From: a virus
Lineage: Duplodnaviria > Heunggongvirae > Uroviricota > Caudoviricetes
Direction: 5' to 3' (one strand)
Length of the DNA: 28,184 nucleotides
IMG/VR virus record: IMGVR_UViG_2563366957_000012
The translations under genes were made by a program, and so were the position numbers. The notes under the pieces were generated by a model, which was not told the origin of the DNA, searched no databases, and was given only the letters and a program-made list of their open reading frames with translations. Position 1 is the stretch's first letter; each line of letters starts with the position of its first letter. Shown piece by piece: positions 13,460 through 25,817 of this stretch.

Positions 13460-14148
13460 TCACTGAGACACTATTAAAAGCGCGTTTTCCAGTCCAGCAA
13501 ATGGATCTGATACGCCTTCTGTCTGCTCCTTCTCCCACTGAAGAAGCGCATCATTCAGTGGCACTTTGACCCCCTGCGCACCGTAAACAGCTGAAACAAT
13601 CTGGGCAGCCCGGATATCAGCCCGTTCGTCCCCCAGCGGGCTGAACCTGTCAAACTCTGCCCACATCATGATTTCTGATGCGGACATTTCCCGGCGTAAC
13701 TCTGACAATGTGCGCCCCATCCTGAGCGCCAGCATCATCAGAAAACGCATCCCCGGAAGCGCTACTTTTTTTTAACCTCGCCGGCATCACTGATCAGTTC
13801 CAGAGACTGCCGAAGAAGCCGCGCATGCACCGGGCCATACACGGCAATCACCTGTTCACGATCATCCACTGAAAATACAGGTTGCAGTCCGGTATCACAC
13901 AGAACATCGATGAACAGTTCAACATCCGCTTCCAGATTTCGGCGGGCGAGCTCCGCAACGGATAACGGTGTCTCATCATCTTTTGCTTTAACGATCTCCT
14001 GCCAGCGCAACCAGGCTTCTGCAGAAGGTTCCCGTAATACAACCGTTGCCCCTTCCCATTCAGGCACATCAACAGTTTTATGGCGAAACCCCGACATCGC
14101 TGCCAGTGCCAGATTACGGATATTTTTAGTCATCACATCTATCCTCAT
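13460..14148 (-). CDS. Tail assembly chaperone G-T fusion, made by -1 programmed ribosomal frameshift from G into the 13460..13750 frame
   Basis: The downstream ORF (13460..13750) is in the -1 frame relative to G and stays open back through the slippery site (codons V-A-L-P-G precede its first Met). Position between major tail protein and tape measure equals lambda G/G-T. Confidence 0.8.
13762..14148 (-). CDS. Tail assembly chaperone G, 128 aa
   Basis: Acidic small protein whose ATG overlaps the V stop (TAATG). Ends ...GEVKKK-stop, directly over the slippery site. Confidence 0.8.
   Translation of the reverse strand: MRIDVMTKNIRNLALAAMSGFRHKTVDVPEWEGATVVLREPSAEAWLRWQEIVKAKDDETPLSVAELARRNLEADVELFIDVLCDTGLQPVFSVDDREQVIAVYGPVHARLLRQSLELISDAGEVKKK
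13765..13771 (-). promoter_or_regulatory. Slippery heptamer A AAA AAG for the -1 programmed frameshift producing G-T
   Basis: Minus-strand sequence gtt aaa aaa aag tag. The heptamer A AAA AAG is the same as the classical dnaX frameshift site, within an 8-A run just before the G stop codon. Confidence 0.75.
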
Positions 14149-24897: not shown

Positions 24898-25113
24898 TTA
24901 CTCTCCCCGTGCAGCCTTACGCTTGTCTTCTCTGATTTTGAAGTACAGATTTGTCAGATAAGTCAGGAAGCCCAGAACCAGACTCCCCAGTACACCAATC
25001 GCAGCCCACTGTGACGGACTGACCTGATCAAGCCACTGTAAAAACCAGTAGCCAGCACTGCCTGCGGAGGTGCCGTAGGCAATGCCCGTTGAAATTTTGT
25101 CCATGGATTTCAT
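24898..25113 (-). CDS. Class II holin / pinholin of phage 21 S type with dual-start motif (MKSM), 71 aa
   Basis: Sequence [70 protein letters not shown] matches S21 as I recall it. Met1 and Met4 give antiholin and holin forms. Strong RBS GGAGGTGAGG. Confidence 0.9.
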
Positions 25114-25177: not shown

Positions 25178-25200
25178 GAAAAACCCGCAAAAGCGGGCGA
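25178..25200 (-). terminator. Terminator-like hairpin upstream of the holin
   Basis: 5-bp GC stem cccgc / gcggg (25185-25189, 25194-25198), loop aaaa, followed on the minus transcript by UUUUUCUUUU. Confidence 0.4.
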
Positions 25201-25404: not shown

Positions 25405-25479
<75 letters not shown>

Positions 25480-25482
25480 ATA

Positions 25483-25558
<76 letters not shown>

Positions 25559-25560
25559 AC

Positions 25561-25637
25561 TGGACCGCCACCGGGGACTCGAACCTCGCACACTCAACTT
25601 AAAGGGTTGACGCTCTTTCCTGATGAGCTAGTGGCGG
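25561..25637 (-). tRNA. tRNA-like gene with atypical features (nominal anticodon UUU, Lys?; C at position 33; C1-G72), 77 nt
   Basis: Manual fold gives a full cloverleaf (D-stem GCUC/GAGC, anticodon stem UCAAC/GUUGA, T-loop UUCGAGU, encoded CCA), but the anticodon loop is CCUUUAA and the T-stem has one A-C mismatch. Identity uncertain; could be a specialised or degenerate tRNA. Confidence 0.5.
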
Positions 25638-25638
25638 C

Positions 25639-25714
25639 TGGTGGCCCTTGCTGGATTTGAACCAGCGACCTGGCGATTATGAGTCGCTCGCTCTCACCAC
25701 TGAGCTAAAGGGCC
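25639..25714 (-). tRNA. tRNA with anticodon CAU, tRNA-Ile2 (ileX/ileZ-like) or tRNA-Met, 76 nt
   Basis: Manual fold: acceptor GGCCCUU/AAGGGCC, anticodon loop CUCAUAA, T-arm GCUGG-UUCAAAU-CCAGC, encoded CCA. Overall close to E. coli ileX as I recall it. Its CCA directly abuts the next tRNA. Confidence 0.7.
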
Positions 25715-25740: not shown

Positions 25741-25767
25741 TTAATTCCGCAATAAAAAACCCGCTCG
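25741..25767 (-). terminator. Intrinsic terminator about 60 nt downstream of the PR'-like promoter (tR'-like)
   Basis: 7-bp stem aacccgc / gcgggtt (25748-25754, 25761-25767), loop tcggcg, followed on the minus transcript by UUUUUUAUU. Confidence 0.55.
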
Positions 25768-25817
25768 GCGGCGGGTTGTAGAAACTCTTCTAACGTCAGG
25801 CATAAAAAGCCCATTGT

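Follow-up and report, generated by a model that had tools for sequence, protein, structure and literature searches.

The 28,184-nucleotide stretch of viral DNA analysed here (IMG/VR record IMGVR_UViG_2563366957_000012, hereafter the window) is an Escherichia coli lambdoid prophage with a lambda-like late region around a cluster of four tRNA genes. The second of these genes, 77 nucleotides (nt) long and located at 25561-25637 on the minus strand, is atypical, since its UUU anticodon sits in a loop with C at position 33 in place of U. Comparison with its relatives indicates that it descends from the argN tRNA-Arg lineage of phages and that its anticodon loop has been rewritten. As for its function, we tentatively propose (at a probability of about 0.4) that it provides a late-expressed, suboptimal but usable tRNA-Lys(UUU) on a foreign body, which would serve as a nuclease-insensitive stand-in; we infer the expression, charging, decoding and nuclease resistance of this RNA from its sequence.

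In the Rfam alignment, the segments of the gene read, from 5' to 3', CCGCCAC-UA-GCUC-AUCAGGAAA-GAGC-G-UCAAC-CCUUUAA-GUUGA-GUGUG-CGAGG-UUCGAGU-CCCCG-GUGGCGG-U-CCA. The acceptor stem (CCGCCAC/GUGGCGG) begins with the pair C1-G72 and is followed by the discriminator U73 (25564) and an encoded CCA (25563-25561). The anticodon stem (UCAAC/GUUGA) closes the loop C32-C33-U34-U35-U36-A37-A38, in which C33 is nucleotide 25604 and the anticodon occupies 25603-25601, and the T stem (CGAGG/CCCCG) carries an A51·C63 mismatch (25586/25574). A preliminary description of this DNA had drawn the same complete cloverleaf, with C1-G72, C33 and the T-stem mismatch; the Rfam alignment returns this fold, and ARAGORN finds a tRNA at exactly these coordinates. 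The window copy is untruncated, with four complete arms and its CCA end, and the Rfam match is full-length. ARAGORN calls the gene tRNA-Lys(UUU), and identical copies are annotated as tRNA-Lys in RefSeq by the Prokaryotic Genome Annotation Pipeline (PGAP), which we used as a stand-in for tRNAscan-SE. An alternative fold placing a U at position 33 was ruled out by inspection, and the Rfam alignment gives the identical loop; single-sequence minimum free energy folding was uninformative, as genuine thrU too gives no cloverleaf without modifications. The 7-nt loop thus has a purine at 37 and lacks U33, and C33 is found in all surveyed Lys-class copies, including the sole variant at position 32. 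Elsewhere the RNA has U8, A14, G18G19 and UUC, but U and G at positions 15 and 48 besides the A·C at 51-63, and a common E. coli allele has C8. Depositors and pipelines label the locus inconsistently, as tRNA-Lys, tRNA-OTHER, Pseudo or nothing.

The preliminary description had offered alignment to E. coli tRNA-Lys genes as a lead. This failed: an alignment with K-12 lysT agrees solely at universal tRNA positions, ruling out a captured or duplicated host tRNA-Lys. Aligned end to end with argN of Shiga toxin (Stx) phages, a tRNA-Arg(UCG), the gene matches at 63 of 77 positions (~82%), and the two have in common C1-G72, U73, A20, U15/G48, the T loop and a purine at position -1. Three pairs differ from argN on both sides (7-66, C-G vs U-A; 30-40, A-U vs G-C; 51-63, A·C vs G·U), pair 27-43 differs on one side only (U-A vs U·G in argN), and three of the seven loop positions differ. 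Arg-form loops of the lineage read CUUCUAA or CUUCGAA. Three loci keep the same backbone with a canonical U33 loop and the anticodon UCU, scoring 53-56 bits in Rfam, and the nearest Arg relative (L154) shows 7 differences from the atypical gene, of which the loop accounts for 3. The identity set of tRNA-Arg is A20, C35 and G or U at 36; the atypical tRNA keeps A20 but, since its position 35 is U, it is a descendant of the argN family and not a functional tRNA-Arg. The nucleotide at -1 (25638 in the window) is A or G in every locus of the family, and the discriminator is usually U, a trait common to argN. With such ends the acceptor helix could gain an eighth pair, A-U or G·U, like that of tRNA-His precursors, and the RNase P site might shift.

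A scan of genome contigs with the D arm and anticodon stem as pattern was dominated by chromosomal tRNA-Arg(CCG) genes of spirochaetes, with 3 enterobacterial loci among the matches listed. The tRNA-Arg(CCG) genes of Treponema and other Spirochaetaceae (L182-L301) fit all 24 specified pattern bases, in keeping with a backbone of typical bacterial tRNA-Arg design. A similar scan of IMG/VR, in which the D arm and anticodon stem were fixed and the loop was left free, returned three loops only, CCUUUAA (75), UCUUUAA (2) and CUUCGAA (45), in loci lying in Ile2-Lys-Thr-Gly or Ile2-Arg-Arg clusters.

The UUU anticodon recurs on other bodies. On a sister backbone it occurs as A33-UUU-AA in at least 7 loci. 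In 7 of 120 loci, a gene with the backbone of thrU, itself a tRNA-Thr(UGU), has been converted to UUU by G35U plus A26G and scores 74.2 bits with a canonical CUUUUAA loop; IMG/VR loci with this gene in third place include L134, L138, L141, L142, L146 and L171. A second, independent backbone has thus acquired a Lys anticodon within the cluster. In these seven loci, the second gene has the canonical Arg(UCU) form in some cases and a degraded Lys allele in the others, and all anticodon changes in the surveyed clusters of E. coli and its phages are to UUU or within Arg. This repeated appearance of UUU, as C33-UUU-AA here, A33-UUU-AA on the sister backbone and UUU on that of thrU, supports the proposal that the atypical gene supplies a Lys anticodon.

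Lysyl-tRNA synthetase recognizes mainly the anticodon U34-U35-U36, which this RNA has, although its discriminator is U73 rather than A73. Because the enzyme reads mainly the anticodon, charging with lysine, though inefficient, would be the most likely outcome. The RNA retains the 36-UAA-38 motif required for the N6-threonylcarbamoyl modification of A37 (t6A37), and the enzyme that installs t6A in bacteria does not read the base of U33 (PMC13276492). We envisage the following course of events: the anticodon loop of a tRNA of the argN lineage, a tRNA-Arg backbone found after Q in lambdoid and Stx phages, was rewritten from an Arg form to CCUUUAA; the gene would be expressed late, under the control of Q, in one transcript with three ordinary tRNAs for rare codons; and the RNA, released by RNase P and 3' trimming and probably charged with lysine, would do the work of a tRNA-Lys(UUU) in the lytic phase, though less well. 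Its value would lie in presenting a Lys anticodon on a body without the positions cut or gripped by known Toprim tRNases, and not in codon supply, and it may also compete for such nucleases.

AriB and PrrC attack chiefly the UUU tRNA, which P2-OLD cuts as a secondary target. AriB cuts U36-A-A-U39-C40|A41 and contacts U16; cleavage is lost with U39A and reduced with A41C or U16C (PMC12409363). At these positions the atypical tRNA has G39, U40, U41 and C16, against U39, C40, A41 and U16 in host tRNA-Lys. P2-OLD, which classically excludes lambda, targets paired CNG motifs, cleaving 3' of C28 and of C40 (PMC12445682). The atypical stem, C-A-A/U-U-G, contains no CNG at 28-30 or 40-42, and argN has a perfect CAG/CUG motif. 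There are precedents for phage tRNAs acting in this way: T5 tRNA variants rescue infection from PARIS (PMC12409363, PMC11464382), PrrC170 is overcome by the tRNA-Lys of phage SP15 (PMC11555353), and lambdoid tRNA-Thr variants, including that of phage 21 at the same locus, counter P2-OLD (PMC12445682, 10.64898/2026.07.10.737580).

Several observations weigh against this proposal. C33, A51·C63, U73 in place of A73 and U15/G48 would each be expected to cut translational fitness, and the Rfam score is ~10 bits under those of the Arg sisters. The A30-U40 pair is older than the switch to Lys, since the Arg(UCU) sisters share it. The UUU variant on the thrU backbone retains the sites of AriB and OLD, and evasion of nucleases is therefore no explanation for it. 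U33C was without effect on cleavage by the Kluyveromyces lactis gamma-toxin (PMC2275089), which leaves the idea of C33 as a general shield against anticodon nucleases unsupported; for PrrC and position 33 we found no data in the literature. Finally, many relatives with loops of 5, 6 or 8 nt, unable to decode normally, still keep the body.

Variation in E. coli and its phages adds to these difficulties. A second IMG/VR scan took the neighbouring Ile2 and Thr genes as anchors and left the atypical gene itself unconstrained. The reference sequence made up ~53% of copies and an allele with the linked changes C4U/U8C/C11U ~20%, and rarer alleles had a D-stem deletion or a 7-nt deletion. In 72 loci with alignable flanks, nucleotide diversity (π) was 0.028 in the atypical gene vs 0.020 in the non-coding spacer, and 0.0025, 0.0032 and 0.008 in the neighbouring Ile2, Thr and Gly genes, the anchor pattern having fixed part of Ile2 and Thr. 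Among complete E. coli genomes, 798 of 5,426 (~15%) carry the gene, and only 279 of the 798 carriers have the exact sequence (474 are at 95-99% and 45 at 90-95% identity). In an evenly spaced sample of carriers, PGAP annotated the exact and near-exact forms as tRNA-Lys and left unannotated both the U8C/C4U/C11U allele and a 76-nt allele with a 1-nt D-stem deletion found in enterohaemorrhagic E. coli (EHEC) lineages; representatives of these two kinds of allele score below 29 bits in Rfam. Selection on the gene in E. coli would accordingly seem weak or conditional. One linked allele supplies most of the diversity, and disruptive stem changes are singletons. The tolerated changes fall at U8 and in the D arm, and π is lowest, 0.005-0.006, in the T arm and 3' acceptor strand. 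Over 29 haplotypes the cloverleaf is paired in 95.4% of cells vs 28-52% in slid controls, and four pairs have changed on both sides. A gene of 76 nt is also found in prophages of the PPompW type (L004, Stx2/PPompW phages of O157, and EHEC genomes), where a trio of Ile2, the Lys-like gene and Arg(UCU) is followed by ISEc20; depositors call it tRNA-Lys and PGAP leaves it unannotated in RefSeq genomes.

The atypical gene belongs to a wider family. In the Yersinia phage YeP1, a gene after Q has the same acceptor stem and T arm, a rewritten anticodon arm and the loop CAUUGCC, and was labelled 'tRNA-Pseudo-TTG' by its authors. Scans in which the sole fixed part was either the 5' acceptor with the D stem or the T arm with the 3' acceptor returned at least ~70 further loci, all with this backbone and adjoining CAU, UGU, UCC or Arg tRNAs; these samples consist of the matches listed and are biased, and exact-match patterns enforce part of the apparent backbone conservation. 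In enterobacterial phages, more than 25 loop variants of 5-8 nt occur on the argN-type backbone. Those of 7 nt include CAUAUAA, CAUUUAA, CAUUGAU/CC/CU, CAUUAUU and CCACAAG, plus CCUGAGG on a 4-bp stem, and most non-Arg loops of this length have A33 or C33. The 8-nt loops are CAUAUUAA and AAUUGUUG; those of 6 nt are CACGGU, CACAGU, CAUAGU, CACGAU, CAUGGU and CCAGGU; and those of 5 nt are UAAAU, UUAAU, UGAAU, UUUAU, AUAAU, AUGAU, GUGAU, GUAAU and CAGGU. ARAGORN calls the variants Phe, Leu, Ser, Lys, Ile, Gln, Cys or 'Stop', or leaves them undetermined, and L360, at 35 bits, is the only one of the scored non-Arg relatives to reach the Rfam threshold of 29 bits, though their arms are intact. In a 73-nt subfamily, in which the pattern fixed 25 nt, the other 43 backbone positions are invariant across 21 loci among the matches listed, against seven alleles at 3 loop positions (P about 8e-8 under uniform rates). 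Another 14 loci, with three new loop alleles, came from metagenomes, and a copy in an E. coli genome, lying between Q and holin as the unannotated second gene of an Ile2-to-Thr-Gly cluster, has a further loop allele and a T stem changed at three positions and still fully paired. Members occur first, last or alone in clusters, and stand-alone copies without a neighbouring tRNA exist. By these comparisons the body of the family is constrained and the loop is not; we make no claim of diversifying selection on the loop, and a loop evolving faster than neutral cannot be claimed in the 73/74-nt subfamily, whose flanks are mosaic and saturated. The atypical gene is the most tRNA-like non-Arg member of this family of constant bodies and variable loops. 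No literature on this gene, on phage tRNAs with C33 or on tRNA-like genes of such a design was found in the searchable literature.

Because relatives with 5-, 6- and 8-nt loops keep the body, a role independent of decoding is to be expected somewhere in the family, and the window gene itself may specify a non-decoding tRNA-like RNA. Its body (acceptor, D stem with A20, anticodon stem, T arm and CCA) would then be selected and act by shape, and the loop would be free or a specificity element, for example in an uncleavable decoy or competitor for anticodon nucleases, modification enzymes or synthetases. The range of loops on one backbone, the invariant 73-nt bodies, the new metagenomic alleles, the stand-alone copies, the low Rfam scores and the frequent loss of U33 all favour this alternative, and competition by viral tRNAs has been raised as a possibility (PMC12409363). 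We nevertheless find it somewhat doubtful for the gene in the window, whose 7-nt loop is canonical save for C33, so that decoding is possible. In the case of P2-OLD, moreover, a viral tRNA that resisted cleavage took the place of the host tRNA and left the nuclease uninhibited (preprint 10.64898/2026.07.10.737580). The conservation of the backbone is partly an effect of ascertainment, the mosaic flanks give no faster-than-neutral loop, and no partner protein is known. A hint of decoding also comes from family loci with a UAU anticodon, only 1 of 9 of which keeps a CAU (Ile2) tRNA in the DNA examined, whereas 18 of the 23 loci with different loops do so (Fisher p=0.0009); the test ignores shared ancestry, the nine loci may be one lineage, and two of them are fragments of 1.5-2.2 kb. 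Such a pattern would be expected if the UAU gene had replaced the AUA decoder, and would mean that 7-nt members without U33 can decode. In one IMG/VR locus (L338), the first gene of the cluster, normally CAU of the Ile2 type, is called Ile(UAU) by ARAGORN.

The proposal of a nuclease-insensitive tRNA-Lys has also to be weighed against decay. An argN-type tRNA-Arg may have lost its function by loop mutations and been kept by linkage and by its part in the RNase P separation of tightly packed neighbours. Diversity equal to that of the non-coding flanks fits such a relic, as do the gradient of scores (Arg sisters 53-56 bits, window allele 44, common E. coli alleles below 29), the skipping of common variant alleles by PGAP in the evenly spaced sample, and the 'tRNA-Pseudo' flags given to relatives by other annotators. 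With spacers of 1-3 nt, RNase P is the obvious separator, judging from the known processing of E. coli tRNA operons, and changes are tolerated at U8 and in the D arm and are rarest in the T arm and 3' acceptor strand. We consider a relic unlikely, however, because 279 genomes share the major allele without a single difference, as do mosaic phages, and each disruptive stem change was seen only once. Within the loop, the Lys-like and Ile-like derivatives vary at 33 and 35 but agree at 34 and 36-38. The UUU anticodon has turned up on three backbones; other subfamilies conserve the sequence of their D stem, A20 and anticodon stem beyond the needs of RNase P; and members of the family also stand first, last or alone. 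Of the possibilities raised in the preliminary description, namely a degenerate copy, a specialised decoder or a non-translational RNA, the choice is thus narrowed and not settled: a simple degenerate copy fits the E. coli population data and is at odds with the constant-body, variable-loop family and the recurrence of UUU.

A broader generalization, which we put forward as speculation, would be that temperate enterobacterial phages carry 'presenters' of anticodon loops derived from tRNA-Arg, with a constant body and a loop diversified in sequence and length, usually without U33. Rather than decoding in the ordinary way, these would be uncleavable mimics or stand-ins matched to the particular host tRNA under attack by a local defence nuclease directed at anticodons, the C33-UUU-AA of the window being a mimic of tRNA-Lys. 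Roles of the inverted-repeat stem and its variable spacer at the DNA level, as a recombination site or the target of a diversity-generating retroelement, were also considered; spacer lengths of 5-8 nt argue against a single recombinase.

The features of the locus are collected in Table 1. The four tRNA genes predicted by ARAGORN all lie on the minus strand, with Q on one side and a holin of the P21 type on the other; this agrees with the location given in the preliminary description, corrected for strand. In Rfam (RF00005, threshold 29 bits) the CAU, UUU, UGU and UCC genes score 72.5, 44.4, 73.8 and 64.9 bits. The spacers measure 1 nt (CAU-UUU), 2 nt (UUU-UGU) and 3 nt (UGU-UCC); the 2-3 nt reported earlier for the others hold, and the Ile2 gene, said to abut the atypical gene, is separated from it by one nucleotide.

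Table 1. Features around the tRNA cluster of the window
Feature	Coordinates	Strand	Evidence
Antiterminator Q gene, 273 aa	25858-26679	-	Pfam PF03589, E=2e-54
Intrinsic-terminator-like hairpin and U-run, tR'-like, between Q and tRNAs	25758-25777	-	Sequence
CAU tRNA, ileX/ileZ-like (tRNA-Ile2)	25639-25714	-	ARAGORN; Rfam, 72.5 bits; PGAP tRNA-Ile; homology to Stx-phage ileZ
Atypical 77-nt tRNA gene, argN-type backbone, anticodon UUU	25561-25637	-	ARAGORN; Rfam; argN homology; PGAP tRNA-Lys
tRNA-Thr(UGU), 100% identical to E. coli K-12 thrU	25483-25558	-	ARAGORN; Rfam; K-12 comparison
tRNA-Gly(UCC), 100% identical to E. coli K-12 glyT	25405-25479	-	ARAGORN; Rfam; K-12 comparison
Second terminator-like hairpin, between tRNA cluster and holin gene	25183-25198	-	Sequence
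Holin gene of class II (P21-type), the first of the lysis genes after the tRNAs	24898-25113	-	Pfam PF04971, E=1e-35

Since a hairpin separates Q from the tRNAs, and phage 21 is annotated with the order pR'-terminator-tRNAs-holin, it is a reasonable inference that the tRNAs are co-transcribed as part of the Q-antiterminated late transcript. The earlier suggestion of a single transcript therefore stands, with its 1-3 nt spacers, a tR'-like terminator upstream and another downstream. A search of the region for sigma-70-like promoters gave one match against 1.2 expected by chance, TCGGCA-16-TATAAT at 25464-25491 (-), inside the Thr and Gly genes. By sequence comparison the cluster is a mosaic in which two genes captured from the host stand beside an Ile2 tRNA and a rewritten Arg tRNA of phage origin, and the tRNA module moves among phages with different tail genes. 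The genes identical to thrU and glyT lie 3 nt apart in the window (25405-25558), and the host has tyrU and a spacer between them. Their arrangement suggests that the phage either took up the host segment and later lost tyrU or acquired the two genes in separate events. The set differs from the trio of Stx phages, as noted before, and that trio is Ile-Arg-Arg as stated there.

The late genes contain, per 1000 codons, 7.2 ATA, 13.3 ACA, 14.0 GGA, 31.9 AAA and 17.9 AAG. Relative to typical E. coli usage, ATA, ACA and GGA are raised roughly 1.7-1.9x and AAG about 1.7x, and AAA is not raised, by the codon comparison that the preliminary description had proposed. The CAU anticodon of tRNA-Ile2 reads AUA once modified to lysidine. 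Rare-codon supply explains the Ile2, Thr and Gly tRNAs, and fails for the Lys tRNA because AAA is not raised. We also considered whether the Thr and Gly neighbours could be resistant variants directed against OLD or PARIS; they are identical to host genes, and host Thr(UGU) gave no rescue, so this was rejected. Rare-codon supply fits them better. That the atypical gene is simply an extra tRNA-Lys for the AAA and AAG codons of the late genes is very improbable, even with AAG enriched and the three neighbours fitting this scheme, as E. coli has six tRNA-Lys(UUU) genes (five seen here), to which a tRNA with C33 and U73 would add little, and a captured lysT would serve better, as thrU and glyT illustrate.

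The gpG-like tail-chaperone open reading frame (ORF; 13762-14148, -) ends in GAG-GUU-AAA-AAA-AAG-UAG (13779-13762, -). It contains the slippery heptamer A-AAA-AAG (13771-13765, -) with the stop directly after it, and the -1 frame enters a T-like ORF (13460-13750) upstream of the tape-measure gene. The G/GT frameshift site thus appears to be Lys-Lys here, unlike the G-GGA-AAG of lambda. E. coli tRNA-Lys is slippery at A-AAA-AAG, as in dnaX, and the heptamer is read wholly by tRNA-Lys(UUU), so that the G:GT ratio of late infection could be adjusted by a Lys tRNA whose loop is altered, through C33 and possibly a different modification; we give this slightly less credence than plain codon supply, because the tRNA module is exchanged among phages with different tail genes, abundant host tRNA-Lys would outcompete it, and relatives with other loops have no such rationale. 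Taken together, frameshift tuning and plain codon supply remain very improbable. A reading of CCUUUAA as an ochre suppressor with UUA in a shifted register carries no weight, as the loop has 7 nt and the sole stop examined, that at the end of gpG, lies in an ordinary frameshift context.

Phage tRNAs are now recognised as counter-measures to PARIS, PrrC, retron Eco7 and P2-OLD, and the characterised cases are mostly from virulent phages and have canonical loops. If our proposal is correct, a natural tRNA of a bacterial virus without U33, made by a switch of anticodon from Arg to Lys, is present in about 15% of complete E. coli genomes. Should the RNA decode, it would be a natural test of the dispensability of U33 and of identity switching driven by the anticodon; should it not, it would represent a new class of tRNA-like phage RNA. 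At a practical level, annotation pipelines disagree on the locus.

The closest known counterpart is argN, which in Stx phages (ileZ-argN-argO, between Q and stx) occupies the same slot, as the second tRNA after Q and beside an ileZ-like CAU tRNA. It has a canonical CUUCGAA loop with U33 and C35 and scores 53.6 bits, against CCUUUAA and 44.4 bits here; its 51-63 pair is G·U or G-C, where the window has A·C, and its downstream partner is argO, where the window has the copies of thrU and glyT. The tRNA-Lys(UUU) of T5 departs, like that of the window, from the host at positions 39 (A in T5, G here) and 41 (C in T5, U here) and has C16. However, the T5 and SP15 tRNA-Lys belong to large tRNA arrays of virulent phages and have been shown to be functional and resistant, whereas the window tRNA lies in a temperate lambdoid prophage, derives from a tRNA-Arg and is known from sequence; position 33 other than U was not met in the reports on those phages. 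Phage 21 has the same layout as the window (pR', terminator, tRNAs, S21-type holin) and carries Asn(GUU) and Thr(UGU) genes (L303, 1292-1447; OL657228.1, 39591-39746) with C39 and G39 vs U39 in the host. The anticodons Asn(GUU), Thr(UGU) and Lys(UUU) make up the published target set of AriB. The tRNA-Thr21 of phage 21 and the tRNA-Thr(UGU) of HK446 protect against P2-OLD; they have canonical loops with U33 and are other isoacceptors than the window tRNA. The Thr gene of the window is identical to the host gene, and host Thr(UGU) gives no rescue from OLD.

C33 itself is compatible with ribosome function, as it occurs in the cytoplasmic initiator tRNAs of plants and fungi. Those are eukaryotic and act in the P site, whereas the window RNA would be an elongator-type tRNA of a bacterial virus and would need to enter the A site. 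For the change of identity there is a laboratory parallel: in 1998 Saks, Sampson and Abelson reportedly obtained Thr(UGU) function from a tRNA-Arg(UCU) gene by an anticodon mutation. There, as proposed here, an Arg body was switched through a synthetase that reads the anticodon. That switch came from laboratory selection and kept a canonical loop, whereas the one in the window would be natural, recurrent and accompanied by the loss of U33.

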